Below the pieces are notes generated by a model. It saw only the letters and a list, made by a program, of their open reading frames with translations, made no database searches and was not told the origin of the DNA. Below are positions 9,659-46,568 of a stretch of DNA of 64,000 nt, in pieces. Source of the DNA: Nitrospirota bacterium. GTDB lineage: Bacteria > Nitrospirota > UBA9217. The stretch spans positions 2,848,001-2,912,000 of the forward strand of contig CAVTRN010000002.1 of NCBI GenBank assembly GCA_963737155.1, given 5' to 3'. Each line of letters starts with the position of its first letter. The stretch's first letter is position 1. The translations under genes were made by a program, and so were the position numbers.

Positions 9659-10669
9659 TTAAAGCTTAGACCAAAAACTCTCATCATTTGCGAGGTCATA
9701 GGCTTGATTAATTGCCGCCGTGATGTCCCCTTTACGAAAATCACGTGTTTTCAAGCTTGGAATTGGATTCGTTGGCGTCAGGGAAATAATGCGACGAGGA
9801 GTATATATATTTGTTAAGTTATCCGAGAGTGCTTTTTGCATTGCGCTAATGATTACTTTCAGTTTTTGGCCTTTATACTTAATAAACGGTTGGACGTTGC
9901 TGAAAATCGTGCTAGGATTGTTTTCAACTAATTTGTATCCGCTGTAAATTGCTCGTCTAATAGCACGGATTTCCAGAAGATCGTTAGCAAAGTCAACCCT
10001 CAATATTATGCGGAGATACCACGGCAGCCGTCCAGTATCGCTATATGTATTGTAGCACAAGCGACTATTTGAAAGAATGAATATTGTATCGCATTTGGCT
10101 TTGATCGCCTCGCCGAGTACGAAAGTTCCTCCATCAGAATGCCATTCTCCGTTAATCATTACCGGTGGCAAGAATCCTTGTAAGCTGATAGCGGCGAGCA
10201 TCAGCTGCTTTATTAATTTCGGATTTTCATGGAAGAGTGGGTCATGATTGGTAAAAATGTGATGTCTTAATCTATTTTCGTTGAAGGTTACAACTTGAAA
10301 TTCAATTGGAGAAGCCACAATCGATTCTGAGTCAAGACTGTCTATCACAAATTTAGATGCGCCATCATTAGAATAAAGATTAGACCCTCTGAAATTTTTA
10401 AATAACCCTGTCCAAGTGCGCCCAAAGATTTTATTTGATCCAAGTTGCTCAATTTTCTTCCATTTCTGTTCCAAGGCATCAACATCCCAATTGGTGCTGA
10501 TAAGATCGCCTCCTGATAACACTCCGACTGAAACGCTTTGGACAAAGAGCGGTTTAATCCCCCTAGTTGCCAGCGCCTTAATAAAGCCAACACTGTATGA
10601 TCCTGTAAAGCCTCCTCCATTAAATATTATTCCGACTTTTCCGAGATTCATAATATCCACTTTCCTCAT
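9659..10669 (-). CDS. Patatin-like phospholipase
   Basis: FNGGGFTG oxyanion loop, QSVSVG nucleophile elbow (SxSxG variant of GxSxG), SDGG catalytic Asp. AT-rich. Start may be the ATG at 10651. Confidence 0.85.
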   Translation of the reverse strand: MRKVDIMNLGKVGIIFNGGGFTGSYSVGFIKALATRGIKPLFVQSVSVGVLSGGDLISTNWDVDALEQKWKKIEQLGSNKIFGRTWTGLFKNFRGSNLYSNDGASKFVIDSLDSESIVASPIEFQVVTFNENRLRHHIFTNHDPLFHENPKLIKQLMLAAISLQGFLPPVMINGEWHSDGGTFVLGEAIKAKCDTIFILSNSRLCYNTYSDTGRLPWYLRIILRVDFANDLLEIRAIRRAIYSGYKLVENNPSTIFSNVQPFIKYKGQKLKVIISAMQKALSDNLTNIYTPRRIISLTPTNPIPSLKTRDFRKGDITAAINQAYDLANDESFWSKL

Positions 10670-10907
10670 GATTTCAGTGTGAAAGATACAAATTCCAAAT
10701 TATTTATTCTACAGTTTAGTATAGAAGGATTCGTTACCTTCAACTCGACAGAAATCGCACCCACTCGTCCAGGAAGAGTGTTTTCCCAAGTGGCTGTTGC
10801 TCGAGCCACTTCCCCTTTGGTGCATCCTCGAATTACACGAATTCTATAAAATGTTCGAACCTGGCCAGCGTGTGTAGGGTGTGCAGGGCAGTAGTTTATT
10901 ATTAGAT

Positions 10908-10950
10908 TAGTAGTGTAGTAGTGTAGTAGTAGTAGTAGTAGTAGTAGTAG
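10908..10950. repeat. TAG/CTA trinucleotide microsatellite
   Basis: (TAGTAGTG)2 followed by (TAG)9 at 10924-10950. Confidence 0.95.
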
Positions 10951-10952
10951 AA

Positions 10953-12590
10953 TCATTCACACTCGCATACGACATTCGCCAATTCCTTCGAAAAAGTCTC
11001 GAAGTTGACCGAATAATCGATGGGGCACTCGATGAGGACCACGGTCTTCAAAGAGAAAGCCTTCTGCAGCAGATCCGATAAATTGTCGTCTGCCTTTACT
11101 CTCATGCCAACGGCCCCGTAGCTCTCAGCATATTTCACGAAGTCCGGATTCTTGTATTCAAGTCCGAAATTCTCGAACCCCTTCGCTTGCTGTTCCCATC
11201 TAATGAATCCGAAGGCATTGTCGTTCAGCACCAAGATGACGAGGGGGAGATTGTAGCGAAGCGCTGTTTCAATCTCCCGCGAGTTCATCATGAACCCTCC
11301 GTCCCCCACCACAGCGAGCACATTTCGGTCCGGCTTTACCAGCTTGGCTGCCATGGCCGAAGGAAGACCGGCCCCCATGGTCGCGAGCGCGTTGTCCACC
11401 AGGAACGTGTTGGGTTTGTACGTCCTGTAGAGCCGTGAGAACCACAGTTTGTAAATCCCGTTGTCAAGCGTCAGAATGTCCTCGTGCGGGAGCGCTTCTC
11501 GCACGTGTCGCACAATCTCCTGGGGCGTCAGGGGAAAGTGATTCTTAAAATCAAGCGACAGCTTCTTGTCCAAAAATTTTCGGATAGCCTTGAAAGTATC
11601 ACCGTTTGTTTTGCAATCGATCAGTTCCCCAATCTGCCGAAGCGAGCACGAGACGTCTCCAACGACCTCGATGACAGGATCATAATAACGGTCAACCTCC
11701 GCCTCGGTAAAATCGATATTGATAATTTTTTTATCCAGATTGGGGTTCCAGATATAGGGCGGATACTCGACGATGTTGTAGCCGATTGTGATGATCACGT
11801 CAGCGTGGTCTATGCCGCAATTCACATAATCGCGCTTGTGGATCCCCGTTGCGAAGAGGCTGTACACCGAGTCATCGGTCACGACTCCCTTTCCCATCTG
11901 CGTATGGACGGCGTGAATGCCTGTCTTCTCGATGAACTGCATCAGTTGACACGTAATCAAGTGACGGTTTGCTCCCGAGGAAAGTATGATAAGCGGATTT
12001 TTTGCTTGATTGATCAGCTCGGCGGCTCGCAGAACAGCTTTGGGATCAGGTGCAGGCCTACGTACGAGACCGCGCTTCTGTACGTCCGCGTCGGTCGTGC
12101 TCCTGGCCACGTCCTCAGGCAGTTCCACATGAACCGCGCCCGGACGTTCCGCCTGAGCCAGTTTGAAGGCGTTTCTCAAGACCGTTGGAATTGCTCCTGA
12201 ATCGACGATAGACACTGATTCTTTGGTAATAGGCCGCATCAGGCTCACGATATTGATGAGCTGGAACCTGGCCTGCCGGTTACCACGAAGTGCTTTTTGA
12301 GCCGAGATAGAAACAAGCGGCGCACCGATGAGCTGCGCATGGGCCACACCGGTAACCAGATTCGTCGCCCCAGGCCCGAGGGTCGAGAAGCATACCCCGG
12401 CTTTTCCTGTAAGCCGTCCATAGGTCGCAGCCATGAACGCCGCAGTCTGCTCGTGGCGAGTAAGGATCAACTTGATTTTTGATGTACGAAGTGATTCCAG
12501 AAAATCGAGGTTTTCCTCACCAGGCAATCCAAAAACATACTCTACCCCTTCCTCCTCCAACTGTCTCAAGAACAAATCGGAAGCCTTCAC
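10953..12590 (-). CDS. ThDP-dependent acetolactate-synthase-like enzyme, probable 2-oxoglutarate decarboxylase (OgdA-like)
   Basis: FGLPGEENL, RHEQ, STLGPGATN, GDGGFMMN...LNDN ThDP motif. Directly downstream of SSADH; no ilvH/ilvC nearby. Confidence 0.85.
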   Translation of the reverse strand: MKASDLFLRQLEEEGVEYVFGLPGEENLDFLESLRTSKIKLILTRHEQTAAFMAATYGRLTGKAGVCFSTLGPGATNLVTGVAHAQLIGAPLVSISAQKALRGNRQARFQLINIVSLMRPITKESVSIVDSGAIPTVLRNAFKLAQAERPGAVHVELPEDVARSTTDADVQKRGLVRRPAPDPKAVLRAAELINQAKNPLIILSSGANRHLITCQLMQFIEKTGIHAVHTQMGKGVVTDDSVYSLFATGIHKRDYVNCGIDHADVIITIGYNIVEYPPYIWNPNLDKKIINIDFTEAEVDRYYDPVIEVVGDVSCSLRQIGELIDCKTNGDTFKAIRKFLDKKLSLDFKNHFPLTPQEIVRHVREALPHEDILTLDNGIYKLWFSRLYRTYKPNTFLVDNALATMGAGLPSAMAAKLVKPDRNVLAVVGDGGFMMNSREIETALRYNLPLVILVLNDNAFGFIRWEQQAKGFENFGLEYKNPDFVKYAESYGAVGMRVKADDNLSDLLQKAFSLKTVVLIECPIDYSVNFETFSKELANVVCECE

Positions 12591-12703
12591 GCTCTATCCC
12601 CTCTCCTCGGAAATATATCACCACGACATTCAGCACTGCATCAATCGTATAGTTTCCCTTTAGCTGTGAACAAACTGAACTCTGAATATTGAAGAAAACT
12701 TAT

Positions 12704-14209
12704 TTATTCCTTAATCACCACGGTCTTGATATTTACGAACTCCTTCAACCCATAATGCGACAGTTCCCTTCCGATTCCGGACTTTTTCACCCCGCCAAAG
12801 GGCAGCCGAGGGTCTGATTTTACCATATCGTTGATGGCGATGGTCCCTGCTTGAAGCTTCGCGGCGACCCTCTCCGCCCGATCCGTGTTTTTGCTCCAGA
12901 TCGCCGCTCCGAGGCCGTATTCGGTATCATTTGCCACCCGGACCGCTTCGTCTTCGTCCCTGACGACGATCACCGGTGCGATAGGGCCGAAGACTTCCTC
13001 GTGCAGGACTTTCATGTTCGGTTTCGAATTATAGATCGCGGCGGGAGCGAAGAAAAGACCTTTCAGTGCCGCCACCGGCATCTGTATAACCTCGGCTCCT
13101 TTCGCCGCAGCATCCCTCAACTGTGCGTTCAGCGAGTTCAGGATGTCCCTCCTCGCAACAGGACCGATGTCAGTCGACTCGTCCATGGGATCGCCTATCT
13201 TTAATTCACGCAGACGGGCGATGAAGTGCTTTTTAAACTCCTCGGCCACACCTTCCATAACGATGAACCTCTTCGCTGCGATACAACTCTGTCCCGTATT
13301 GACTACCCTTGCGTTCGCGGCCATGCGGCCAGCCTTTTCCACATCCGCATCGTCGAGAACAATAAAGGGGTCTGATCCGCCCAGTTCAAGAACGAGTTTT
13401 TTTATCTTTCTTCCCGCGTGTTCGCCCACAACCTCACCGGCTTGGTTGCTGCCCGTCAGAGAGACGCCATCAACTAGGTCCTTGTCGATGAGCCTCAAAG
13501 CCTCAGTCGCATCGATTATCAGAGTTTTGAACACATTGTCCGGGAACCCTGCTTTCCGGAACGCCTCTTCGATGGCAAGGGCAGTCATAGGAACGTTAGA
13601 CGCATGCTTCAGGACTACGACGTTGCCTGCTGCAATTGCCGGGATGCCGAATCGAAAAGCCTGCCAGAACGGAAAGTTCCAGGGCATGATCGCCAAAACA
13701 ACACCCAGGGGCTGAAACATAACATAGCTCTTTTTTGCCTCAGTTTTGATATCTTCCGGAGTCAGAAACCGTGTGGCATTTTCCGCATAGTAATCGCACA
13801 GCCATGCGCATTTCTCCACTTCAGCCAGTGATTCCTTGATCGGCTTGCCCATCTCACTAGTCATGAGCACTGCATTCGCCCGCTTCTCCGATCTCAACAC
13901 TTCGCCCAGCTTTTTGATATATTTCACTCGCTCAGTTACCGGCACATCACGCCAGTTCAAGAAGGCATTTCTCGACATTTGGATTTCCCGGTCCACTTCG
14001 TCGCGCTCCAGGAGATTGAACTCTCGAATCACCTGTTCGGTATATGGGTTGATAGATTGAATCTTCCCTGCTTTTCTTATAAAGGATTTTATCGATTGAA
14101 CTTTCATTTTTTTCATCCCTTTCACGGGGGACGTCACGCTTTTCATTTTGGAGCGGGTCATCCTTTTCTTTACCTGCTTCTTTTTTACGATAGCCTTTTT
14201 TGCTGCCAT
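12704..14209 (-). CDS. NAD(P)-dependent succinate-semialdehyde dehydrogenase (Sad/SsaD type) with Lys-rich N-terminal extension
   Basis: IMPWNFPFWQ, LKHASNVP, LELGGSDP, NTGQSCIAAKRF, EEVFGP, FGGVKKSGIGRELS. Confidence 0.9.
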   Translation of the reverse strand: MAAKKAIVKKKQVKKRMTRSKMKSVTSPVKGMKKMKVQSIKSFIRKAGKIQSINPYTEQVIREFNLLERDEVDREIQMSRNAFLNWRDVPVTERVKYIKKLGEVLRSEKRANAVLMTSEMGKPIKESLAEVEKCAWLCDYYAENATRFLTPEDIKTEAKKSYVMFQPLGVVLAIMPWNFPFWQAFRFGIPAIAAGNVVVLKHASNVPMTALAIEEAFRKAGFPDNVFKTLIIDATEALRLIDKDLVDGVSLTGSNQAGEVVGEHAGRKIKKLVLELGGSDPFIVLDDADVEKAGRMAANARVVNTGQSCIAAKRFIVMEGVAEEFKKHFIARLRELKIGDPMDESTDIGPVARRDILNSLNAQLRDAAAKGAEVIQMPVAALKGLFFAPAAIYNSKPNMKVLHEEVFGPIAPVIVVRDEDEAVRVANDTEYGLGAAIWSKNTDRAERVAAKLQAGTIAINDMVKSDPRLPFGGVKKSGIGRELSHYGLKEFVNIKTVVIKE

Positions 14210-14318
14210 ACGCGTCCTCCCTCCGATTACCGCTAAATATTAAACTGCAGCCATAAACTACACAAAATAAACTTTCGCGGTTTTATTGATTCCGTAATTC
14301 GTATCTCAGCAGCCTCTT

Positions 14319-15536
14319 TCATTTTCTCTGTTTTGCTGGCGTATAAGAGCAACCCGTCCGACCACAGTAATTACCGATGTAATCCGAAGACGGCCGGTAG
14401 AGCGCAGGTTTTTCCTGAGCTTCCCCGAACTTTTCCTCGATAATATGGGCGGTCCAGCCCGCGATCCGTGCTATGGCGAAAACCGCCGTCATAAGATCGT
14501 TCGGGATGCCCATCAAGTGGTAAACCGGGGCGCTATAAAAATCCACATTCGGCTTGATCGTAGTCTTGCCCCGTTTCTCTAATTCGGCCACCGCGGTCTC
14601 TTCGACCTCTGTCAACAGCCGAGTCCATATCTCCTGTCCGAGTTTTTTCCCGAGCCGCCTGCCCATCTCTTTCAGGAATTTAGCCCTCGGATCGGTTGTC
14701 TTGTATATGGCATGCCCTAAACCCATGATCTTCTTGCCGCTCTCAAGTTGACTTTTCACCCACCCGGGCACATCCTTCTCATCCCGCAGTTCCATCAGCA
14801 TCTTCATGACCTGAGCATTGGCGCCGCCGTGCAGACTACCGGAAAGAGCACCCACGCCGGCTGCCACGCCAGCATACATATGCGCCTGTGTCGAAACCAC
14901 TTCGCGGCAGGCGAATGTGGAGGCGTTGAATGAGTGGTCGGCATGGAGCACTAGCGCGGTATCAAAATCCTTCGCTATCTCTGGGTCGGGCTTTATACCG
15001 CTCATCTGCCAGAGAAAATTTCCCGCATGAGAAAGCGTTTCATCGGGAGGAAGTGGCATCAGCTCCTGCCGTATCCGCTGCCACGCGGCGACCACTTCGG
15101 CAACACGCGCGATGAGTTGGATGGCCTTAAATAGATTCGCTTCCCTCGTCTCCCTTGTCAGTTCAGGGTCATCCATCGCTAGCAGCGGAATTGCCGACTG
15201 GAGCACATCCATGGGCTGGGACTGGCGAGGCAATTGTTTCATGCTCTCGATCACGAATCCGGGCAAACGCCGCGCCTCGGCGAGACGCTGTAAAAATTCC
15301 TTCAGCTGCTCCACTGTCGGAAGCGCGTCATAAAGCAGAAGGTAGGCGGTCTCCTCGAATGTCGAATTACTTGCCAGATCCTCGATCCGGTACCCACGAT
15401 AGATAAGAATGCCGTTATCACCGTCCACGTCAGAGATCTTCGTATCCGCTACTTTAACGCCGCGCAGACCGATGTTTTTGGTTTCAATATCTTTGCATTT
15501 TCTGGCAAATTCACCTATTTGAGCTCTAGCTCCCAT
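14319..15536 (-). CDS. gltA: Citrate synthase
   Basis: GLRGV, LHADHSFNASTF, LHGGAN, MGLGHAIYKTTDPRA, PNVDFYSA. Confidence 0.93.
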   Translation of the reverse strand: MGARAQIGEFARKCKDIETKNIGLRGVKVADTKISDVDGDNGILIYRGYRIEDLASNSTFEETAYLLLYDALPTVEQLKEFLQRLAEARRLPGFVIESMKQLPRQSQPMDVLQSAIPLLAMDDPELTRETREANLFKAIQLIARVAEVVAAWQRIRQELMPLPPDETLSHAGNFLWQMSGIKPDPEIAKDFDTALVLHADHSFNASTFACREVVSTQAHMYAGVAAGVGALSGSLHGGANAQVMKMLMELRDEKDVPGWVKSQLESGKKIMGLGHAIYKTTDPRAKFLKEMGRRLGKKLGQEIWTRLLTEVEETAVAELEKRGKTTIKPNVDFYSAPVYHLMGIPNDLMTAVFAIARIAGWTAHIIEEKFGEAQEKPALYRPSSDYIGNYCGRTGCSYTPAKQRK

Positions 15537-15802
15537 AATCAGCCTTTCTTTGATAACCTTGAATCAGAATGGGGAACAACACCTTCTATTAATGTTCCAT
15601 CCTGTCCAGGTCGATCCTGAACCCTAAAAGACTCTTGACAATAGTACACCTACATCATGGAGAAAAACGCAATAAATACTTAATGAAATTTCCCAAAAAA
15701 GACTTATACATCTTCAGCCTCACGAAGCACTCTTTGGAATTTCTGTGACAATTCTCTTTTCCTCTTGAAAAGGATTGGATCCTGAGAAAATAATTTCTCT
15801 CC

Positions 15803-17764
15803 CTACCTTTCTTTATATTTACGCTCCGCTTCCGCCTGAAGCTCCTTTTTCACAAAATTCAGCGTCCCGCCAGCCAGCAGGTACTTGCGCTGCCGCAGGG
15901 ACACGTCCAGAAGCGTCATAATAGCCCTGCTGTCGACCTCTACAGGGATTTCCTGATCACCGCGCTTTATCCGCGCCCTAATCTCCGGGAAAGTAACCTT
16001 CGTGCCCTTGATCAGAAGGTCATAGTCCTTTGGATCTTTGAACGTAAGCGGCAAGATGCCAAAGTTACAAAGGTTCGATTTGTGGATTCGGGCGAAACTC
16101 TTAACGATCTTAGCGCGCACGCCAAGATAGCGCGGTGCAAGTGCAGCGTGCTCGCGGCTCGATCCCTGTCCGTAATTCTCGCCACCTACCACGACCACGG
16201 TGCCGCGCGCCCTGCATTCTTTTGCAAAGTCAGGCTCGATCTGGGAAAAAACGAAATCGCTTAGCGCTTCAATATTCGAGCGGAAGGGCAAGACCCTGTT
16301 GCCGGCTGGCATGATCCCGTCAGTAGAAATGTTATCCCCCACCCTCAACACAACTTCAGCTTGAAACGTGTCGGGAAGTGGTTTAAGTTCCGGTAGCGGC
16401 TTAATATTAGGGCCACGGAGGATTTCGGTTTTCGTAAGCCCCTTCGCCGGGGAAATGACCGATTTTTCATCGATGATATATCGGACCGGGTCTTCAACCC
16501 GTGGGTAGGGCATCTCCTTTGACAAATCGCGGGGATCGGTGATAACGCCCCTCAATGCTGCTGCTGTCGCGGTCTCAGGTGAGCAAAGGTATATCTTGTC
16601 ATCCTTTGTCCCACTTCTTCCTGGAAAGTTCCGGGGGAATGTACGAAGACTGACTTCACCGGTTCCAGGAGCTTGACCCATCCCGATGCAGCCCTGGCAG
16701 CCCGGCTCATGCATGCGCGCGCCCGAGGTCAGGAATGCTAGAAGTCCGCCAGCCTTATACACGTTTTCTAACACCTGACGACTTCCGGGGTTCACATGGA
16801 ACGACGTGTCAGGATACACGTGCCGATTTTCCAAAATTTTGGCGGCTATCATCAGATCGCGGAATGATGAATTCACACTGCTACCCACGATGGCTTGGTC
16901 CACTTTGATTCCGGCGACATCGCGCACAGGAACCACATTGCCGGGTGACGAAGGCTTGGCGATAAGCGGTTCAAGTTTCGACAAATCGATTTCGGTGTAT
17001 TCGTCATATTCGGCGCCCTCATCCGTGGAAAATGGAACCCATGCATCCCCCCGGCCCTGGGCAATCAGATATTCACGGGTGCGTTCATCGGACGGGAAAA
17101 TAGAGGTTGTCGCACCAGTCTCGGTTCCCATGTTGCCAATTGTCTCCCTATCCGTCGCAGACAGGGTCCTAACTCCCGGACCGCAATACTCGATAATTTT
17201 CCCCACACAGCCCTTCACGTCGTAGCGTCTGAGCATTTCAAGAATCACATCCTTTGCACTCACCCAGTCCGGGAGCGTCCCCGTGAGATTTACGCCGAGC
17301 ACCTTAGGACATGGGAAATAATAGGGATAGCCGGCCATGGCGAGGGCAACATCGAGTCCTCCCGCCCCAATACCCAGCATGGAAACGCCGGCGGCGCCGG
17401 GAGTATGGCTGTCGGCTCCCAGCATCGTCTTTCCCGGGATGCCAAAGCGTTCCATGTGCACCTGATGCGACACCCCATTCCCCGGCTGGCTAAAGTGTAT
17501 GCCGTATCGTGCGGCAGCTGTCTGGAGGAACTTATGGTCGTCGGCGTTTTTATTGTCTGTCTGGAGTAGGTTGTGATCGACGTACTGAGCGCAAAGCTCG
17601 GCCTTCACCCCATTGATGCCCAAAGACTCAAACTCGAGGATTGCCAGTGTTCCTGTGGCGTCCTGCAGCAAGGTGTGATCGATTCTGATACCAATCTCCT
17701 TGCCCGGTTCCAGTTCTCCCTCGATAAGATGAGCTTCTAAAATTTTATAAGTCAGATTCTTCAT
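15803..17764 (-). CDS. Aconitate hydratase (653-aa archaeal/firmicute type)
   Basis: QDATGT, GADSHT, GCQGCIGMGQ, RNFPGRSG, STDGIMPAG, NYGQGSSREHAA. Confidence 0.93.
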   Translation of the reverse strand: MKNLTYKILEAHLIEGELEPGKEIGIRIDHTLLQDATGTLAILEFESLGINGVKAELCAQYVDHNLLQTDNKNADDHKFLQTAAARYGIHFSQPGNGVSHQVHMERFGIPGKTMLGADSHTPGAAGVSMLGIGAGGLDVALAMAGYPYYFPCPKVLGVNLTGTLPDWVSAKDVILEMLRRYDVKGCVGKIIEYCGPGVRTLSATDRETIGNMGTETGATTSIFPSDERTREYLIAQGRGDAWVPFSTDEGAEYDEYTEIDLSKLEPLIAKPSSPGNVVPVRDVAGIKVDQAIVGSSVNSSFRDLMIAAKILENRHVYPDTSFHVNPGSRQVLENVYKAGGLLAFLTSGARMHEPGCQGCIGMGQAPGTGEVSLRTFPRNFPGRSGTKDDKIYLCSPETATAAALRGVITDPRDLSKEMPYPRVEDPVRYIIDEKSVISPAKGLTKTEILRGPNIKPLPELKPLPDTFQAEVVLRVGDNISTDGIMPAGNRVLPFRSNIEALSDFVFSQIEPDFAKECRARGTVVVVGGENYGQGSSREHAALAPRYLGVRAKIVKSFARIHKSNLCNFGILPLTFKDPKDYDLLIKGTKVTFPEIRARIKRGDQEIPVEVDSRAIMTLLDVSLRQRKYLLAGGTLNFVKKELQAEAERKYKER

Positions 17765-24351: not shown

Positions 24352-25623
24352 TCATAGATTCCCTCTCAGTCTCTCAGCCTGGAGAATCCGCTTAACCGCT
24401 AGTTCATAGGCTGCCTTGCGCATCCTGCACCGCTTTTCACGACAGTGGCCGCTGACATCGTTGAATGCAGTGATCATGGTCTGTTTTAGTTTTTCGAGAA
24501 CTTTATCTTCCGGCCAAGCTTCGCCGCTGAGGTTCTGGCTCCACTCGAAGAAGCTTACCACCACGCCGCCGGCATTGGCAAGGATATCCGGGATAAGCAG
24601 GACGTCCCTGCTGAAAAAGATATCGTCCGCCGTCGCCGTGGTCGGCGCATTCGCGAGTTCAAGGATGATCTCCGCTTTCACATCTTTTGCGTTTCCTGCA
24701 TTAAGCTGGTTTGAAAGCGCTGCTGGAACCAGCACGTTGCAGTCTGAGGTCAAAATTTCGGCGTTGGAGATATCCCGGCCGCCAGGGAATTTCGTGACGC
24801 TGCCCATTTTATTCTTGTGCTGCATTACCGCAGGGATGTCCAGTCCATCCTGGTTCAGGATGCCACCGTTCACATCGCTGACTGCAATGACGCAGTACCC
24901 TCGTTCGAAGAGCAGGCGTGCAGTGTTTTCGCCGACGTTGCCGAATCCCTGGACAGCCACGCGAAGTTTCCCGGGCTCCATGCCACGGTCCTTTATTGCC
25001 TGTTCAAGTACATGAATCCCTCCCAAAGCCGTTGAATACCGCCGTGCTCTGATGCCACCCAGCTCCGCCGGCTTTCCCGTGACGACTGCAGGAACATGTT
25101 CCCGCTTGATCCGCTCGTACTCATCGAGGATCCACGCCATGATCTGTTCGTCGGTATAGACGTCCGGAGCTGGAATATCCTTGAACGGCCCAATGTAGTC
25201 GGCAATGGCCCGGATATATCCGCGAGTCACTCGTTCGAGATCGCGGTGGGACAGGTCAAGAGGATCGACAGCCACGCCGCCCTTGGCGCCGCCAAAGGGG
25301 ATGTTCACCACCGCGCATTTGAGCGCCATGAGAAATGCAAGCTCGCGTGCATGCTCCTCATCCATCTCAGGATGAAAACGGATGCCGCCTTTAGAGGGCC
25401 CCCGCGCGTCGTTGTACTGGACACGATAACCGGTGAACATCTGCGATTTTCCCATCGTCAGTTTGACGGGAAAGGTCACGGTAAAGGACCTGCGAGGCAT
25501 GGACAGTAGAGCGAGTTCGTCCTTCGTGAGCCCGAGGTCGGCATAGATTGTCTGCAGTTCGGTCATGCCGAGACTGCGTAGATCTTTTTCGTCAAGATGA
25601 AGCCGTTCATGGTTGCGGTTCAT
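24352..25623 (-). CDS. gdhA: Glu/Leu/Phe/Val dehydrogenase (glutamate dehydrogenase)
   Basis: GPSKGGIRFHP, PFGGAKGG, DIPAPDV, QGFGNVG, PDILANAGGV. Confidence 0.9.
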   Translation of the reverse strand: MNRNHERLHLDEKDLRSLGMTELQTIYADLGLTKDELALLSMPRRSFTVTFPVKLTMGKSQMFTGYRVQYNDARGPSKGGIRFHPEMDEEHARELAFLMALKCAVVNIPFGGAKGGVAVDPLDLSHRDLERVTRGYIRAIADYIGPFKDIPAPDVYTDEQIMAWILDEYERIKREHVPAVVTGKPAELGGIRARRYSTALGGIHVLEQAIKDRGMEPGKLRVAVQGFGNVGENTARLLFERGYCVIAVSDVNGGILNQDGLDIPAVMQHKNKMGSVTKFPGGRDISNAEILTSDCNVLVPAALSNQLNAGNAKDVKAEIILELANAPTTATADDIFFSRDVLLIPDILANAGGVVVSFFEWSQNLSGEAWPEDKVLEKLKQTMITAFNDVSGHCREKRCRMRKAAYELAVKRILQAERLRGNL

Positions 25624-25725
25624 GGAAACCCCCAAGAAAGTTCAAAGTTCGCCGTTCAAAGAAGGCAGGCTTAGCCCTAAGATGCTTATCTTTTTGAATA
25701 TAAACTTCGAACCGTTATTTTTATT

Positions 25726-27147
25726 TTACTTTACCAGCCCCGTCTTCCTCGCCGTTTCAGCGACAGCGGCGGCAACATGAACGGGTACTTTCCGATCGAA
25801 TGGACTAGGAATGATATAGTCCTCATGTAGTTCCTCGGCTTCGATGCTATGAGCAATGGCCTTTGCCGCAGCAAGCTTCACTGCCTCGTTCACGCCGCGC
25901 GCCCGTACATCGAGCAGCCCTCGGAAGATGCCGGGGAAGCCGAGCATATTGTTAATCTGATTGGGATAGTCCGACCTTCCCGTGGCCATGATCCGGACGA
26001 GCGGTAGAGCTTCTTCAGGCGCGATCTCTGGGTCAGGGTTTGCGAGTGCAAATACGACGGGGTTCTTCACCATTCTGCGGATGTCGTCCGCGGTAATCAC
26101 GTTTGGAGCTGAAAGGCCGATGAACACGTCCGCTCCCTTCATAGCGTCGGATATACTCCCCTTTACCCTGCGGGGATTGGTAATCTTTGCGAGCTCACGC
26201 TTTGCATGGTCCATCCACCCTTTCCTTCCGCTATACAGCGCTCCGGTGCGGTCACAAACAATAATATCGCGAACGCCCGATGCAAGCATAATTTTCGTTA
26301 CCGCAGTCCCAGCTGCACCGGCACCGACCACGACGATCTTGAATTTTTTCAGGTCCCGCTTAAGGAGCCGCGAAACATTTATAAGCGCTGCAAGGGCGAC
26401 GACCGCAGTCCCGTGCTGGTCATCATGGAACACAGGGATGTCGAGCATCTTCCGAAGCCTCGTTTCCACCTCGAAGCAGTGGGGCGCGGCGAAATCTTCC
26501 AGGTTGATGCCGCCGAACGTCGGTGCGAGGTTCTTCACCGTAGTTACGATCTCGTCAATGTCTTTGGTTGCAAGGACGATCGGGAATGCATCGATGCCCG
26601 CGAACTCCTTGAATATCATAGCTTTGCCTTCCATGACTGGAAGTGCCGCTTCGGGCCCTATGTCGCCCAAGCCAAGCACGGCGGTGCCGTCTGAAACTAC
26701 TGCTACAGAATTGCCTTTGATCGTGTATCTGTAAGCGTGTTCCTTATTTTGATAGATATCCATGCAGACCCGCGCCACGCCAGGTGTGTACACTTTGGAG
26801 AGGTCGTTTCGGTCGCGCATTGGCAGTTTGTTTTTCACCTCAATTTTTCCGCCTTCGTGGGCCAAAAAAGTCCGGTCCATGATTCGAAGCACCTTAACGC
26901 CCGCGATCGCCCTGATTCCCTTCACAATCGCTTTTTCGTGATCCTCGTTCTGTGCGTTTGCCGTCACGTCTCGGATGATCTTTCCCTTTTCCACGCGTAC
27001 GATGTCCACGGACCCCAAGTCCCCCCCCGCGTTCGAAATGGCCATAGCGATCTTCGCAAACATCCCGATCCTATTTTCAATCTCAACCCTTATGGTGATG
27101 CTGTAGCTGGGACTGCATCTCAAACCCGAAACACAGATATCTTTCAT
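25726..27147 (-). CDS. NAD(P)-dependent malic enzyme with N-terminal ACT domain
   Basis: N-terminal ACT domain; YTPGVA, DGTAVLGLG, FHDDQHGT, GAGAAG, ANPDPEI, NQINN. Confidence 0.92.
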   Translation of the reverse strand: MKDICVSGLRCSPSYSITIRVEIENRIGMFAKIAMAISNAGGDLGSVDIVRVEKGKIIRDVTANAQNEDHEKAIVKGIRAIAGVKVLRIMDRTFLAHEGGKIEVKNKLPMRDRNDLSKVYTPGVARVCMDIYQNKEHAYRYTIKGNSVAVVSDGTAVLGLGDIGPEAALPVMEGKAMIFKEFAGIDAFPIVLATKDIDEIVTTVKNLAPTFGGINLEDFAAPHCFEVETRLRKMLDIPVFHDDQHGTAVVALAALINVSRLLKRDLKKFKIVVVGAGAAGTAVTKIMLASGVRDIIVCDRTGALYSGRKGWMDHAKRELAKITNPRRVKGSISDAMKGADVFIGLSAPNVITADDIRRMVKNPVVFALANPDPEIAPEEALPLVRIMATGRSDYPNQINNMLGFPGIFRGLLDVRARGVNEAVKLAAAKAIAHSIEAEELHEDYIIPSPFDRKVPVHVAAAVAETARKTGLVK

Positions 27148-27609: not shown

Positions 27610-29010
27610 ATGTCCTATTTTCGCATCGAAAAAGATTCACTCGGTGAAATAAAGGTCCCGAAGGATGCACTCTACGGTGCCCAGACCCAGCGCGCTGTTG
27701 ATAACTTTCCCGTAAGTGGTATCCGCTTTCCCCGCGTCTTTATCCGAAGCCTTGGGCTCATCAAAGCCGTGGCCGCTGAAGTGAACGCAGGGCTGGGATT
27801 GCTCGACGTCGGAATCGCGAATTCGATCCATCTGGCCGCGCTCGAAGTGGCTGACGGTACGTGGGACAATCATTTCCCGATAGACATCTTCCAAACCGGC
27901 TCTGGCACCTCCACGAACATGAATGCCAACGAAGTGATAGCAAACCGGGCCTCTCAAATCCTAGGTTCAACCACAGAGACGGTCCACCCCAACAATCATG
28001 TGAACATGGGGCAGTCTTCGAATGATGTTATCCCGACGGTTATTCACGTGAGCGCGTATCTCGAACTAAGCGAAGTGCTTCTTCCCGCGTTCAGACATCT
28101 CCATGCTTCGCTAAAAAACCGGGAAACTGAATTCTGCGAAGTCGTGAAGACCGGCAGAACGCACCTGATGGATGCTATGCCGGTAACGCTGGGACAGGAG
28201 ATAAGCGGCTGGGCCTTCCAGGTCGAGCAAGCTATCGAACGGATACAATCCTCCCTGCCCCGCCTGGCACAGCTCGCTATCGGAGGTACCGCAGTAGGTA
28301 CGGGCGTCAACGCGCCCGCGGACTTCGGGAAAATCGTGTCTGCAAGGCTTGCGGGCCGAACCTCCTTGCCCTTTCTAGAGACGGCGAATCATTTCTCATC
28401 GCAGGCGACCATGGACGCGGCTGTTGAACTTTCCGGCCAGCTCAAGACCACCGCGTCATCCTTCATGAAAATAGCCAATGATCTCCGATGGATGAACAGC
28501 GGACCTCTCGCGGGTCTAGGTGAGATTTCACTGCCTGCACTCCAGCCGGGCTCGAGCATCATGCCGGGGAAAGTGAACCCGGTTATGTGCGAGATGATGA
28601 TGATGGTCTGCACTCAGGTTACGGGCAATGACGCCGTGATCGCAACCAGCAACCATCTGGGCAATTTCGAACTGAACGTGATGCTGCCCGTGATTGCGCA
28701 CAATCTTCTTCAGTCGATCACCATCCTTGGCACTGCTTCGCGGCTCTTCGCGGACAAGGCAATTACCGGTTTTACTTTGAACCGGGAGCGCATCGCTGGT
28801 CTCGTGGACAAAAACCCAATCCTCGTCACGGCCTTGAATCCTGTTATCGGCTATGACACTGCCGCACAGATCGCAAAAAAAGCCTATGCTGAAGGACGAC
28901 CGTTGAAAGAAATTGCAGCTGAAATGACCAAACTTTCAAAGGAAGAACTGGATAGGCTGCTCGACCCAAAGCCCATGACCAAAGTCGGAATACCGAAAGG
29001 CAATAATTAA
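27610..29010 (+). CDS. fumC: Fumarate hydratase class II
   Basis: QTGSGTSTNMN, GRTHLMDA, PGSSIMPGKVNP. Confidence 0.95.
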   Translation: MSYFRIEKDSLGEIKVPKDALYGAQTQRAVDNFPVSGIRFPRVFIRSLGLIKAVAAEVNAGLGLLDVGIANSIHLAALEVADGTWDNHFPIDIFQTGSGTSTNMNANEVIANRASQILGSTTETVHPNNHVNMGQSSNDVIPTVIHVSAYLELSEVLLPAFRHLHASLKNRETEFCEVVKTGRTHLMDAMPVTLGQEISGWAFQVEQAIERIQSSLPRLAQLAIGGTAVGTGVNAPADFGKIVSARLAGRTSLPFLETANHFSSQATMDAAVELSGQLKTTASSFMKIANDLRWMNSGPLAGLGEISLPALQPGSSIMPGKVNPVMCEMMMMVCTQVTGNDAVIATSNHLGNFELNVMLPVIAHNLLQSITILGTASRLFADKAITGFTLNRERIAGLVDKNPILVTALNPVIGYDTAAQIAKKAYAEGRPLKEIAAEMTKLSKEELDRLLDPKPMTKVGIPKGNN

Positions 29011-29068: not shown

Positions 29069-29749
29069 ATGAAGGATTCGTTCATGTTATTACCCATATC
29101 CACCGTCGGCAGAAAAATCATGGTGGCAATCACGGGCCAAATCCTCGTCATTTTCATATTATTTCACATATCAGGAAACTCCTCAATCTTTTTCCATAAA
29201 CTCAACGTCTATGTCGCCGCCCTCTATACCCTGCCGGTCTTTATTTGGGGTGGGCGTATTGTCCTTATCCTGTCCTTCATCCTCCATATGTGGTATGGTA
29301 TAATCCTGAAACTCGAAAACAGGAGTGCGAAACCTCAGTCCTACATTGTAACGAACTACCGCCAAGCAACACTTGCAGGCCGGTATCAGATTTGGACAGG
29401 CGTTATCATCGCGGCCTTCCTTATCTATCATCTTCTTCAATTCACCTTCCAGGTTACGAATCTCCAGAACGCGGCTGATACCCACCTGGATGCCCTCGGC
29501 AGACCGGATATTTTAATGATGGTCGTGCGCAATTTCCAGCAGATCGGCATTTCAGGAACATATATAATTTCCCTAGCCGCCTTGGGGCTGCACTTACTCC
29601 ACGGCATCCAGAGTTCTATCCAGACTTGGGGGCTGACAAATGACAGGACACTGCCGGTGATCGAGAAAACCGGAACGATCGCCTCAATCATTTTGTTTTT
29701 CTGGTATATATCCATACCGGTGACAATTTTTCTTGGAATTTTGAAGTAG
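29069..29749 (+). CDS. sdhC: Succinate dehydrogenase/fumarate reductase cytochrome b subunit
   Basis: STVGRKIMVAITG; heme-ligand histidines in TM helices; precedes sdhAB. Confidence 0.9.
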   Translation: MKDSFMLLPISTVGRKIMVAITGQILVIFILFHISGNSSIFFHKLNVYVAALYTLPVFIWGGRIVLILSFILHMWYGIILKLENRSAKPQSYIVTNYRQATLAGRYQIWTGVIIAAFLIYHLLQFTFQVTNLQNAADTHLDALGRPDILMMVVRNFQQIGISGTYIISLAALGLHLLHGIQSSIQTWGLTNDRTLPVIEKTGTIASIILFFWYISIPVTIFLGILK

Positions 29750-29863
29750 CAACTCTTTTCATCATTTCGGACCTAATCCGGAATCCAGTTGTATGAAACT
29801 GAGCCTCCGGATTTCCGCCATCGCGGGACAGACGATCATAACGTTTCAATGGCAAGGAGCACT

Positions 29864-31778
29864 ATGCAGCTCGACGGGAAAATACCATCCGGTCAACTTC
29901 ATGAAAAGTGGGACAATCGTCGCGCGGAGATGAGGTTGGTCAACCCCGCCAACAAACGGAAGTATCGTGTCATAGTCATCGGCACCGGATTGGCTGGCGC
30001 TTCAGCCGCCGCCTCGCTTGGCGAGCTGGGATACAACATTGATGTCTTCTGTTTCCAGGACTCACCGCGCCGCGCACACAGCATCGCAGCTCAGGGCGGC
30101 ATCAATGCGGCAAAGAACTATCCCAACGACGGCGACAGCATCGAGCGACTGTTCTACGACACGATCAAAGGGGGCGATTTCCGGTCCCGCGAGGCGAATG
30201 TGTACCGCCTGGCGCAGCTGAGCGCAAACATCATCGATCAGTGCGTGGCCCAAGGTGTGCCTTTTGCTCGGGATTACGCAGGATACCTTGCCACGCGCTC
30301 CTTCGGCGGCGCCCAGGTATCGCGCACCTTTTACGCGCGCGGTCAGACTGGACAGCAGCTACTTCTCGGATACCTATGGTGCTCTCTCCCGCCAGGTGAC
30401 GGCGGGTACAGTTATGCTTCACCCGCGCACGGAGATGCTCGATCTTGTCATTGTGAAAGGCGAAGCAAAGGGAATCACGGTGCGCGACCTGGTGACCGGC
30501 AACATTGAGTCGTTTGCAGCGGATGCAATTTGTCTTTGTTCGGGCGGTTATTCAAACGTCTATTACCTCACGACGAATTCCGTCATGTCCAGCGTCAATG
30601 CAACATACCGGGCCTATAAAAAGGGAGCGTTCTTTGCCAACCCCTGCTATACTCAGATCCACCCCACCTGTATCCCCGTCACAGGAGAACACCAGGCCAA
30701 GCTCACGTTAATGTCCGAATCGCTCCGGAACGACGGCAGAGTCTGGGTACCGAAAAAAAAAGGCGACAAGCGGGCGCCAAACGACATCCCAGAATCTGAT
30801 CGGGATTACTATCTTGAACGGAAATACCCGTCCTTCGGAAATCTCGCAGCCCGCGATGTCACCTCTCGCGCAACAAAAGAGGTTTGTGACGAAGGATTGG
30901 GAATCGGTTCGGGTAGCCGCGGCGTGTACCTTGACTTTGCAGACGCTATAAAACGCCTCGGCGAAGAAACGATCCGTGAACGGTACGGCAACCTCTTTGA
31001 AATGTATGAGCGGATCACTGCTGAGAACGCGTATCAGTTGCCGATGCGAATCTACCCCGCACCGCACTATGCAATGGGCGGGCTCTGGGTGGATTACAAC
31101 CTCGAAAGCAACATCCGGGGGCTATTCGTGCTCGGTGAGGCCAACTTCTCGGACCACGGCGCAAACCGGCTCGGCGCGAGCGCCCTGATGCAGGGGTTGG
31201 TGGATGGCTACTTCATTCTTCCTTACACGATCGGAAACTATCTAGCCCAAACAAATCCGGGAGTGCTCAGTACGGAAAGTCCGGAATTTCGACAGTCACG
31301 GCAGGAGGTCGAGGCGTTCACAAAAAGACTGCTCTCGGTCAAAGGAGGGAAAACCGCTCGCGAATTCCACCGGGACCTCGGTAAACTCATGTGGGACAAC
31401 GTGGGTATGACGCGGAGTGAATCGAGCCTGAAATACGCGCTCAGACGCATACCCGAGATCCGCGCTGAGTTTTGGCAAAACGTAGCCGTCACTGGCAGTG
31501 GAACGGAATTGAACCAGGAACTCGAAAAAGCGGGCCGTGTCGCCGATTTCCTCGAATTTGCGGAACTCCTGACCAGGGACGCACTACAGCGGGACGAATC
31601 ATGCGGCGCCCATTTCCGCATCGAGCACCAGACACCGGACGGTGATGCCGTCCGCGACGACAGGAATTTTAGTTACGTCTCGGCGTGGGAGTACAAGGGC
31701 CCGGATAAGGAACCGGAACTCCATAAGGAGCCGCTCGTATTCGAACATACACACCCGGCTGTGAGAAGCTATAAATGA
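29864..31778 (+). pseudogene. sdhA: Succinate dehydrogenase/fumarate reductase flavoprotein, split by a +1 frameshift near 30371
   Basis: IGTGLAG and SIAAQGGIN in frame 1 up to GQQLLLG. GGA T ACC TAT GGT GCT continues as TYGALSRQ in the next frame, with [25 protein letters not shown]. May be a sequencing error. Confidence 0.88.
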
Positions 31779-31872: not shown

Positions 31873-32628
31873 ATGAATCTCATACTCTATGTCTGGCGTC
31901 AGAAGGGGCCTCACGAAAAAGGAAAACTCAAGCGCTACGAGGCGCGCGACATCGGCAGCGACATCTCTTTCCTCGAAATGCTTGACGTCGTAAACGAAGG
32001 TCTGGTAAAAAAGGGCGAAGACCCGATCGCCTTTGACAGCGACTGCCGCGAGGGCATTTGCGGCACCTGCGGCCAGGTCGTGAATGGTATTCCTCATGGG
32101 CCGCGAAAAAAAACGACGGTCTGCCAACTCCATATGCGCCACTTCAAGGACGGCGACACGATCTATATCGAACCTTTTCGCGCCCGCGCCTTTCCAGTTA
32201 TCAGGGACCTGATCATCGATCGCGGTGCCTTTGAAAAGATCATCCAGTCAGGCGGCTACATCTCGGTCCATACCGGCGGGATGCTCGATGGGAATGCGAT
32301 CCTGATTCCCAAACAGGATGCTGACAAGGCAATGGACGCTGCCGAGTGCATCGGCTGCGGGGCCTGCGTTGCCGCCTGCCCCAATGGTTCTGCCATGCTT
32401 TTTACTGGGGCAAAAGTATCACACCTTGCCGCTTTGCCCCAGGGTCAGGTTGAGGCTGCCCACCGAGTCTGCGTCATGACCTCAGAAATGCTGAATCAGA
32501 AGTTTGGCAACTGCAGCAATCACTATGAATGCGAGTCCGTCTGCCCCAAAGGAATCAAGGTCAGGTTCATCTCTATACTGAACCGCGAGTTCATCAAGGC
32601 GCATATACCCGGAATGCGGCGTCGATAA
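31873..32628 (+). CDS. sdhB: Succinate dehydrogenase/fumarate reductase iron-sulfur subunit
   Basis: [33 protein letters not shown]. Confidence 0.95.
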
Positions 32629-44600: not shown

Positions 44601-46388
44601 TCATTCCAGTCTCTTTTTAAACTCCTCAAACTGTTTCCGAAGCCTCTCCGGAATCCGGCTGCCGAACTGTGCAAAGTGCCGTTCAATATCCGGGAGTTCT
44701 GCTTTCCATGCCGCGAGATCCACGTCCATAAGTGCTTTCATGTTTGCAGCAGAAATATCAAGACCCTCGAGATCGAAATCGCCATCCTTCGGCATAAGGC
44801 CGATCGGTGTTTCCCGAGCACCGATCTTCCCATCCACGCGTTCGCACATCCACTTGAGCACCCGGCTATTCTCGCCAAACCCAGGCCACAGGAACCTACC
44901 CTCCGCGCTCTTCCGGAACCAGTTCACATAAAAAATTCTCGGGGCTTTGACGTTCAAACGCTCTCCCATACCGAACCAGTGCTGGAAATAGTCGCCCATG
45001 TGGTAACCGCAAAACGGCTTCATGGCAAAAGGATCTCGTCTCAGGTTGCCAATAGCTCCGATGTTCGCCGAAGTGGTCTCCGACGCAGCAGTCGCCCCGA
45101 GGAACACGCCGTGGTCCCAGGAATATGACTCAAAGACAAGCGGCACCACACCGCTGCGCCGGCCACCGAAGATGAAGATGTCGATCGGCACGCCCTCGGG
45201 GTTCTCCCGATCCTGGTAGATGACAGGGCACCGCGATACGGGTGCCGTGAATCGGGCGTTCGCATGCGCAGCATCCTCTTTTTTCTCAGGCGTCCAGTCG
45301 CGGCCTTTCCAGTCAATTGCATGCGCAGGCGCTTCCTCGGTCATGCCCTCCCACCAGACATCGCCATCATCGGTGAGCGCGCAATTCGTAAAAATGATGT
45401 CACCCTTCAGCGTGTCCATGGCCATGGGGTTCGTATCATAGGACGTGCCCGGTGCTACGCCGAAGAACCCGCTCTCCGGGTTGATAGCATGGAGTCTGCC
45501 ATCTCCCCGGATCTTCATCCAGGCGATGTCGTCGCCGATGCACTCGCACTTCCATCCCTTGATCGACGGCTGCATCATGGCTAGGTTTGTCTTGCCGCAG
45601 GCCGAGGGGAATGCGGCGGCAATATGATAATGCTTTCCTTCCGGGCTGGTCAGGCGGAGGATCAGCATGTGCTCTGCCATCCAGCCTTCCTTCCTCGCAA
45701 TGTTCGAGGCGATGCGGAGTGCGAGGCATTTCTTCCCAAGCAGCGCATTGCCACCGTAGCCTGACCCGTAGGACCAGATCAGATTTTCTTCCGGGAAATG
45801 GCTTATGTACTTCTGCTCGATCGGGGCGCAAGGCCACGTGGTATCCGTCTGCCCAGGGGGAAGAGGGGCTCCGATAGAATGGAGACAAGGGATGAACTCG
45901 CCGTTCGTGCCCAGCACTTCCAATATCGTCGAACCGACCCGGGTCATAATGTGCATGTTGCAGACTACATAGGGGCTATCAGTCAGTTCGACGCCGATTT
46001 TTGAGATCGGAGACCCAATGGGTCCCATGGAGAATGGGATCACATACATCGTACGACCTTTCATGCAACCTTGGTACAAGCCACGCATGGTCTTCTTCAG
46101 TTCATCGGTATGGACCCAATTGTTCGTGGGGCCAGCCTCTTCCTGGGAATGGGTGCTAATGTAGGTGCGGTCTTCCACGCGGGCCACATCGCTAGGATCG
46201 GTGCGGAAGAGAAAGCTGTCGGGCCGCTTTTTGACCGGGATAGCCATACCGTGTTCCCGCATGAGCGACATTGTCCGATCGTACTCCTGCCGCGAACCGT
46301 CGCACCAGTACACTTTGTCAGGTCGGCACATCTCAACAACTTCATTCACCCATTTATTTAACTTCTCGTTCTGTGGTCTGCTTTTCAT
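44601..46388 (-). CDS. pckG: Phosphoenolpyruvate carboxykinase (GTP)
   Basis: [51 protein letters not shown]. Confidence 0.96.
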
Positions 46389-46568
46389 TGCCAAATCTCC
46401 TTGGTCCCCTCTCCGCCTTCACCACGTTCCGCATAAGCACTCAATCACCTGATCCTGGTGAGGACGATGAACCTGTATCCTGTCTCATTGCACTAAGCGG
46501 CTAGATGTTTTCTCCCCGGCGAAGTGATCACATAATCAGCCGGGAAAATTAAAGAGACAACGATTGAT

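Follow-up and report, generated by a model that had tools for sequence, protein, structure and literature searches.

A putative 2-oxoglutarate decarboxylase paired with a probable succinic semialdehyde dehydrogenase in a citrate synthase-aconitase gene cluster of a Nitrospirota genome

How does an organism that encodes citrate synthase, aconitase and isocitrate dehydrogenase carry 2-oxoglutarate on to succinate if genes for 2-oxoglutarate dehydrogenase and succinyl-CoA synthetase are not found in its genome? The question is raised by a 64,000-nt stretch of DNA (C2:2848001-2912000; hereinafter the window, meaning the whole stretch that was analysed) from a 4.84-Mb Nitrospirota genome assembled in two contigs, C1 and C2, and rated 100% complete. 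The window contains four minus-strand genes for, in order of reading, aconitase, citrate synthase, an aldehyde dehydrogenase (ALDH) of the succinic semialdehyde dehydrogenase (SSADH) type and a thiamine diphosphate (ThDP)-dependent enzyme. An earlier note, made from the DNA letters alone, had described four co-oriented genes forming a tricarboxylic acid (TCA) cycle shunt; their outer coordinates match exactly, and Pfam and NCBIfam models confirm all four families (Table 1). Judging from sequence and gene context, we consider it probable, at roughly 65%, that the ThDP enzyme and the SSADH turn 2-oxoglutarate into succinate and so stand in for 2-oxoglutarate dehydrogenase and succinyl-CoA synthetase. 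What the decarboxylase acts on, as well as the direction and size of the flux, is what we infer.

A search of the whole genome (E <= 0.001) returned no match to 2-oxoglutarate dehydrogenase E1 (sucA) and none to the succinyl-CoA synthetase beta subunit (sucC), and the best match to the alpha subunit (sucD) reached 55.8 bits against a cut-off of 353. The other parts of the cycle are encoded: citrate synthase, aconitase, an NADP-dependent isocitrate dehydrogenase (NF006156, 649 bits), a fumarase-family lyase, a malate dehydrogenase (MDH)-family protein (the one malate/lactate dehydrogenase-family gene in the genome) and sdhCB, with sdhA frameshifted in the assembly. For 2-oxoglutarate dehydrogenase and succinyl-CoA synthetase the gap agrees with the bypass of the earlier note; its further claim, that oxoglutarate:ferredoxin oxidoreductase is bypassed too, is not supported and is taken up below.

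The cluster is not a product of chance, because the order aconitase-citrate synthase-SSADH-ThDP enzyme recurs in 12 of the 14 loci from relatives, representing at least seven genus codes, and also in a Nitrospiraceae metagenome-assembled genome (MAG; L031, 'uncultured Nitrospiraceae bacterium'). One of the two exceptions lies at a contig edge and the other has no aconitase gene within 3.7 kb, and the SSADH and ThDP genes adjoin each other in all 14 loci. This recurrence bears out the linkage to citrate synthase and aconitase as contextual support for the pair. In the window the successive spacers measure 266, 109 and 113 nt, and the ThDP gene follows the SSADH gene directly on the same strand, as had been described. 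The best NCBIfam model for the citrate synthase is TIGR01800 (411.6, just short of the required 421.3), and the protein passes no cut-off of an equivalog model; we take it for a citrate rather than a 2-methylcitrate synthase because an aconitase gene adjoins it. An aconitase paralogue, 53% identical, is encoded on contig C1.

The aldehyde dehydrogenase looks like a true SSADH by its residues. Its best solved relatives are 3vz1, 3vz2, 3vz3 and 4it9 (435 bits), 3vz1 and 4it9 being the SSADH of Synechococcus sp. PCC 7002, and 3VZ3 holds that enzyme with NADP+ and succinic semialdehyde bound (PMC7510979). According to the same report, Cys262, Glu228 and Asn131 are catalytic, Lys154 and Ser157 determine the cofactor, and Trp135, Arg139 and Ser419 surround the substrate carboxylate (PMC7510979). 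All eight of these catalytic, cofactor- and substrate-binding residues are conserved in our alignment (window/7002: N178/N131, W182/W135, R186/R139, K201/K154, S204/S157, E275/E228, C309/C262 and S465/S419), and K201 and S204 would fit NADP+ as the cofactor. No other ALDH of the SSADH type occurs in the genome, the next ALDHs being 26-27% identical. Ahead of the SSADH core lies a Lys/Arg-rich N-terminal extension of about 45 residues (window positions 14075-14209) with a conserved G-V-(K/N)-K-M-K motif, which most Nitrospirota relatives share, whereas the orthologues of Methanosarcinaceae and Woesearchaeota and the cyanobacterial enzyme of known structure lack it.

Automatic annotation would call the ThDP enzyme an acetolactate synthase, as the earlier note expected: every named homologue bears the annotation 'acetolactate synthase large subunit', and the only curated cut-off that it passes (NF006187, also PRK08322; 787.7 against 509, positions 2-547 of 548) belongs to a model of the same name. 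The nearest solved structures carry this label as well (13bb, 392 bits; AlsS, about 336 bits). With AlsS and IlvB the enzyme shares the three-domain ThDP fold (PF02776, PF00205 and PF02775), AlsS being the closest characterised solved fold by sequence, but it falls below the cut-offs of both AlsS models (NF006378, 450.4 against 510; TIGR02418, 420 against 551.1) and of the IlvB model (TIGR00118, 374.2 against 538.35), and it has no FAD or regulatory-subunit context. No small-subunit gene (ilvN), ilvC or ilvD lies near it, in agreement with the earlier description, and neither does alsD; its downstream neighbour encodes a patatin-like protein. Acetolactate decarboxylase (alsD, PF03306) has no match anywhere in the genome, and a canonical ilvD-ilvB-ilvN-ilvC-leuA-leuC operon stands elsewhere, at C2:1.27 Mb (ilvB, 870.3 bits). 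The sub-cut-off scores, the separate ilvBN operon and the missing alsD support the view that the window gene encodes neither an acetohydroxyacid synthase (AHAS) nor AlsS, and the consistent ALDH linkage described below is not needed for acetolactate synthesis; that the gene is a catabolic alsS or a spare AHAS catalytic subunit after all is therefore very improbable, annotations and structural labels notwithstanding. The FGLPGEENL sequence that had been noticed at the N-terminus is indeed present (residues 20-28), but its use as a marker of the cyanobacterial enzyme OgdA fails: as a search pattern it matched at least 600 stretches and is common to the whole NF006187 family.

What the ThDP enzyme does with its product is suggested by the company that its relatives keep. 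Among 80 genome loci with relatives at 48-70% identity, 62 hold an ALDH-family gene, nearly always directly adjoining; six of the 18 loci lacking one are short contigs. An ALDH gene likewise stands beside the ThDP homologue in 11 of 12 loci from relatives and in four of six annotated plasmid loci. The two enzymes are also found fused, SSADH before ThDP enzyme in a single frame of 1074-1078 residues in the Nitrospiraceae MAG (L031:4405-7628; G045:C42), and ThDP enzyme before an ALDH of another, non-SSADH type in two metagenome proteins (P0124 and P0176). Because adjacency and fusion alike suggest that the product is handed to an aldehyde dehydrogenase, the ThDP family is most probably a decarboxylase coupled to that enzyme and not a ligase. 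We therefore see a quite improbable alternative in a carboligase with 2-oxoglutarate or pyruvate as donor, similar to 2-hydroxy-3-oxoadipate synthase or MenD, next to an SSADH with an independent task such as clearing semialdehyde derived from 4-aminobutyrate (GABA) or 4-hydroxybutyrate. Ligation is frequent among ThDP enzymes of this superfamily, and the product of Mycobacterium tuberculosis Rv1248c is described in PMC10418658 as forming 2-hydroxy-3-oxoadipate and not free semialdehyde; the ALDH fusion and near-universal adjacency, however, point to a free aldehyde, and a pyridoxal phosphate-dependent glutamate decarboxylase (PF00282) to feed the GABA route has no match in the whole genome at E <= 0.001.

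The kind of ALDH differs across the family. An SSADH-type partner, 44-66% identical to that of the window, occurs in seven of the 80 loci, from the Nitrospiraceae MAG, a Methanosarcina MAG, Woesearchaeota, Planctomycetales, KSB1 and two Magasanikbacteria. In the remaining 55 ALDH-bearing loci the partner is a different ALDH with 24-36% identity to the window SSADH, and the four of these partners that were checked (L035, L036, L054 and L075) are lactaldehyde-dehydrogenase-like.

Evidence from a second lineage places the SSADH-ThDP pair at the same metabolic position. Orthologues of the pair in Methanosarcinaceae (62-67% identity) are arranged in the order SSADH-ThDP-sdhA-sdhB-fumarase/aspartase-family lyase, and contamination is excluded because two of these clusters reside in complete chromosomes. 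One lineage, the Nitrospirota, thus links the pair to steps that precede 2-oxoglutarate, the other, the Methanosarcinaceae, to steps that follow succinate, and the missing step is enclosed by gene context on either side. Phylogenetic trees (FastTree, 140 rows; IQ-TREE quick mode, 49 rows) place the window protein in a clade of enzymes with an N-x-[IVML]-Y-K pattern (hereinafter subclade 2A of NF006187; support 98-100), within which Nitrospirota and Methanosarcinaceae are sisters (SH-aLRT 99), followed by Planctomycetales (95) and Woesearchaeota (92). As far as the trees go, this sisterhood of the SSADH-ThDP pair implies a transfer between domains.

The distribution of the two enzyme classes within Methanosarcinaceae points in the same direction. 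Class-1 members of NF006187, found in methanogens, anammox bacteria, Firmicutes and haloarchaea, resemble the window enzyme in family and in having an SSADH-type ALDH adjoining, but they show the Microcystis-type active-site pattern, share about 41-45% identity with the window protein and form a separate clade. Among 41 Methanosarcinaceae genomes, subclade 2A occurs in seven, class 1 in 11 and both together in none; the class-1 genes directly follow an SSADH gene in five of seven loci and lie near a glutamate dehydrogenase gene in two. Class-1 ThDP genes with SSADH are also carried by haloarchaeal plasmids, including one of Haloarcula. Either/or occurrence combined with the same SSADH partner fits one function shared by subclade 2A and class 1, and the window genome, which carries both classes, is an exception to this pattern. 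In a set of 41 relatives, sucC scores above its cut-off in four of 25 genomes with an NF006187 member as against nine of 16 without one, a contrast that amounts to few independent events because the split follows family lines. We give even odds to the more specific proposal that subclade 2A represents a separate lineage of 2-oxoglutarate decarboxylases with a pocket of its own (N377, I379, Y380, F460 and F462 instead of V, A, H, Y and L), exchanged together with SSADH between sulfur-metabolising Nitrospirota and Methanosarcinaceae and TCA-linked in both. Alternatively, the altered pocket could serve a different dicarboxylic 2-oxoacid.

For a closer look at the active site, we used the residue numbers published for the Microcystis aeruginosa enzyme KGD (MaKGD, MAE_06010; PMC10418658), mapping the sites onto the window protein through L011, a relative with the exact MaKGD pattern, and not by aligning the MaKGD sequence itself. 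The catalytic glutamate E47 and the G429-D430-G431 and D457 positions align with MaKGD E50, G434-D435-G436 and D462. Eight of the 15 published sites are identical (window/MaKGD: E47/E50, K381/K386, A403/A408, M405/M410, G429/G434, D430/D435, D457/D462 and Y526/Y531), and seven are changed (Q254 to H251, V382 to N377, A384 to I379, H385 to Y380, Y465 to F460, L467 to F462 and K471 to E466). Docking placed V382, A408, L467, Q254, K386 and K471 of MaKGD at 2-oxoglutarate, contacts that the available text of the report does not confirm by mutation of those residues (PMC10418658).

Several observations weigh against the assignment of the pair to 2-oxoglutarate. The match to MaKGD is partial, the eight identical sites being cofactor or catalytic residues, and two of the six docking contacts are retained (K381 and A403), the remainder being replaced (V382 by N, L467 by F, Q254 by H and K471 by E). 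The well-supported subclade of the window protein includes none of the proteins with the Microcystis-type V-x-A-H-K pattern, and both trees were built without any named cyanobacterial OgdA sequence; on this indirect evidence such sequences would be expected to group with class 1. A second NF006187 member of the genome (C1:850491-852098, L022:8477-10153; 717 bits, with 44% identity to the window protein) lies outside subclade 2A, near class 1, and comes closer to the Microcystis KGD active-site pattern, so that this C1 paralogue could be the true 2-oxoglutarate decarboxylase. Sister-group enzymes of Proteobacteria and Bacteroidota (about 50% identity) pair with lactaldehyde-dehydrogenase-like ALDHs that are 24-32% identical to the window SSADH, and because of this different partner type the substrate range of the NF006187 family may be wide. 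The dehydrogenase itself scores best with the NADP-SSADH model NF006915 yet stays below its cut-off (523 against 730), and two other SSADH equivalogs are missed as well (NF010575, 445.3 against 855; TIGR01780, 356.3 against 646). The 2-oxoacid:ferredoxin oxidoreductases of the genome comprise a PorCAB-like set and IorA along with two orphans, a VorB-subfamily alpha subunit and a beta/gamma pair; the orphan alpha gene adjoins cysK and is 560 kb away from the beta/gamma genes (C2:2768128-2768673 and C2:2205765-2206361), and together they may constitute a split 2-oxoacid:ferredoxin oxidoreductase. An oxoglutarate:ferredoxin oxidoreductase is nevertheless unlikely, the alpha subunit scoring 546.9 bits as VorB and just 240.5 against 579 with the KorA equivalog. 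Co-transcription of the four cluster genes, which we presume, is not favoured by their spacing of 109-266 nt or by scans for promoters (10 sites, 7.8±2.7 expected) and terminators (six sites, 9.2±3.0 expected), both at chance level. Finally, sdhA contains a 1-nt insertion near 30370-30372 relative to five of five same-genus relatives (GGATACC versus GG-CGCC), which could either be genuine, making sdhA a pseudogene, or stem from the assembly; in the former case, succinate oxidation or fumarate reduction by that enzyme is lost in this strain.

The docking-contact mismatch weakens the case for 2-oxoglutarate without breaking it, because the contacts derive from docking alone and a methanogen class-1 enzyme that adjoins SSADH also varies at Q254 and K471. 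The proposed sequence from 2-oxoglutarate through succinic semialdehyde to succinate is partly supported: gene context and SSADH residues speak for it, the decarboxylase pocket against it. That the ThDP enzyme instead decarboxylates another 2-oxoacid (for example 2-oxoadipate or a branched-chain, sulfonated or guanidino acid), with the dehydrogenase oxidizing the resulting aldehyde and the C1 paralogue or a 2-oxoacid:ferredoxin oxidoreductase handling 2-oxoglutarate, is unlikely in our estimate. Such a division of labour would agree with the four differing contacts, with the better pattern match of the C1 paralogue and with the other ALDH types and unrelated surroundings of the sister enzymes. 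A 50%-identical homologue on a plasmid of Leisingera sp. NJS204 (L030), for instance, stands with its own ALDH between an FMN-dependent glutamate-synthase-like gene, an agmatinase-family gene and RidA, a context which suggests, tentatively, a role of the sister enzymes in other 2-oxoacid pathways. Against it, the window dehydrogenase, sole SSADH-type ALDH of the genome, conserves the W, R and S by which succinic semialdehyde is held at its C4 carboxylate; the pair is linked to citrate synthase and aconitase in Nitrospirota and to sdhAB and fumarase in Methanosarcinaceae; and the C1 paralogue has no metabolic neighbours, being flanked by CPA2 antiporter/CrcB genes and a Fur-family regulator gene with no ALDH gene beside it.

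If the pair acts on 2-oxoglutarate, as we favour, citrate synthase, aconitase and the NADP-dependent isocitrate dehydrogenase would supply the substrate, and the ThDP enzyme would decarboxylate it non-oxidatively to succinic semialdehyde and CO2. The dehydrogenase would then oxidize the semialdehyde to succinate with formation of NAD(P)H; from there the path would run on through SdhCAB and the fumarase-family lyase and be completed by MDH or malic enzyme. Glutamate dehydrogenase would link the path to nitrogen metabolism and phosphoenolpyruvate (PEP) carboxykinase to C3 metabolism. The decarboxylation step would be irreversible and would proceed without a CoA ester, ferredoxin or substrate-level ATP formation.

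A bypass of this type, formed by OgdA (a 2-oxoglutarate decarboxylase) and SsaD, was shown in Synechococcus sp. PCC 7002 (PMC5160925, PMC12214013), an organism that has sucCD (PMC5160925). Its occurrence outside cyanobacteria, which the earlier note put in its heading, is not new: the 2011 study of the Synechococcus bypass is reported to have already noted such genes in 'some methanogens and anaerobic bacteria' (PMC12214013), and a decarboxylase-SSADH pair has been proposed from genomes of Thiomicrorhabdus, closing the TCA cycle without 2-oxoglutarate dehydrogenase (PMC9751133). Our full-text literature search combining the enzyme name with Nitrospir* found no description of the bypass enzyme in that phylum, the matches using these terms in other contexts. 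The window pair resembles OgdA/SsaD in combining an AHAS-like ThDP enzyme with an adjacent SSADH, in the SSADH itself, whose nearest solved homologue is the Synechococcus enzyme with all key residues conserved, and in the proposed chemistry. It differs in gene order (SSADH before ThDP enzyme, embedded with citrate synthase and aconitase), in the subclade and active-site pattern of the decarboxylase, and in its host, a dsrAB-bearing non-phototroph without sucCD. The Thiomicrorhabdus proposal is likewise a genome-based case of TCA closure in a non-cyanobacterium without 2-oxoglutarate dehydrogenase, but its hosts are gammaproteobacterial sulfur oxidizers, and the loci of relatives such as Piscirickettsiaceae and Thiodubiliella belong to the sister group with the other ALDH type.

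The window pair is, on its sequence features, a plausible variant of the known bypass, and since the concept has been in print since 2011 we regard it as an extension and refinement and not as a new principle. What is new is the separate subclade with its own pocket, linked to citrate synthase and aconitase in a Nitrospirota family and to sdhAB and fumarase in Methanosarcinaceae, together with the cross-domain sisterhood and the either/or distribution of the ThDP classes in Methanosarcinaceae. Searches for named cyanobacterial OgdA sequences yielded none. None of the 80 loci returned by the genome-contig scan was cyanobacterial, none of the 120 matches listed in the class-1 profile search was named as such, plasmid tblastn searches and protein-cluster look-ups named no cyanobacterial homologue, and ESM Atlas look-ups named clusters of Pseudomonadota, Nitrospirota and Bacillota only. 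Selecting cyanobacterial representatives by exact MaKGD numbering was tried and given up in favour of the relative pattern alone, since the best match (P0201) proved closest to a plasmid gene of Dinoroseobacter.

The host is in all likelihood an anaerobic, sulfur-metabolising member of the Nitrospirota, because records named 'Nitrospirota bacterium' are among the nearest homologues of the ThDP enzyme (77-90% identity), the cluster recurs in a Nitrospiraceae MAG, and dsrA (566 bits, above its cut-off) and dsrB are present. The dsrA match (C2:1107884-1109035, outside the window) holds one in-frame TAG, and this codon and the sdhA frameshift may both be residual assembly errors.

Strict anaerobes have long been described as having branched TCA cycles. 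Should the reading of subclade 2A be correct, such organisms would gain a route from 2-oxoglutarate to succinate that closes the cycle independently of CoA. If the pair acts as proposed, the annotation 'acetolactate synthase' would be hiding a TCA-closing step in a family of dsrAB-bearing Nitrospirota and in some Methanosarcinaceae. Metabolic models that leave a gap between 2-oxoglutarate and succinate in these anaerobes would then need changing. The route would yield NAD(P)H but neither reduced ferredoxin nor ATP and would be irreversible, which bears on whether the cycle runs oxidatively. The different pocket of subclade 2A also offers a natural test of what determines 2-oxoglutarate specificity in AHAS-like decarboxylases, enzymes that are useful in engineering succinate and 4-hydroxybutyrate production.

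Beyond the four clustered genes, the window holds further TCA-related genes that the earlier note had overlooked (Table 1): those for glutamate dehydrogenase, malic enzyme, a fumarase/aspartase-family lyase, SdhCAB and PEP carboxykinase. The first four of these, from glutamate dehydrogenase to SdhCAB, are encoded 7-20 kb away from the SSADH-ThDP pair, and the window thus forms a conserved TCA island around it. In seven same-genus relatives, too, sdhA is found 17-26 kb from the ThDP gene. The lyase remains ambiguous between fumarase and aspartase because it misses the fumarase model TIGR00979 (574.5, cut-off 664.75) and passes the aspartase subfamily model NF008909 (534.3, cut-off 510).

Table 1 TCA-related genes in the window, with family scores in bits
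Feature	Position in window	Strand	Family evidence
ThDP-dependent 2-oxoacid decarboxylase, probable 2-oxoglutarate decarboxylase, 545 aa, GTG start	10953..12590	-	NF006187 787.7
SSADH-type aldehyde dehydrogenase, 501 aa	12704..14209	-	PF00171 468.4
Citrate synthase family protein, type II/small, 405 aa	14319..15536	-	PF00285 420.9
Aconitate hydratase, 653 aa	15803..17764	-	PF00330 338.9 and PF00694; NF005558 942.4 (cut-off 612)
Glutamate dehydrogenase (2-oxoglutarate/glutamate link)	24352..25635	-	PF00208, PF02812; NF040817 458.8 (below cut-off)
Malic enzyme with ACT domain	25726..27147	-	PF00390, PF03949, PF13291
Class II fumarase/aspartase family lyase	27610..29010	+	PF00206 and PF10415
Succinate dehydrogenase/fumarate reductase cytochrome b subunit, b558 family (sdhC)	29069..29749	+	TIGR02046 148.9 (cut-off 96)
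sdhA/frdA flavoprotein, two frames	29789..31778 (ORFs 29789-30508, 30255-31778)	+	NF005749 positions 3-172 and 173-641 in different frames
sdhB/frdB iron-sulfur subunit	31873..32628	+	NF005746 413.7 (cut-off 243)
GTP-dependent PEP carboxykinase, peripheral to the cycle	44601..46394	-	PF00821 552.7, PF17297 332

The TCA island is flanked by mobile elements, namely an IS630-family transposase gene (235 bits) at 21414-22442, 3.6 kb upstream of the aconitase gene, and a DDE_3 fragment at 53311-53904. Directly past the stop codon of the ThDP gene, the plus strand carries a TAG trinucleotide microsatellite of about 15 copies (10908-10950), which is overlapped by a 96-codon open reading frame (10666-10956) that has no family match and is probably spurious.

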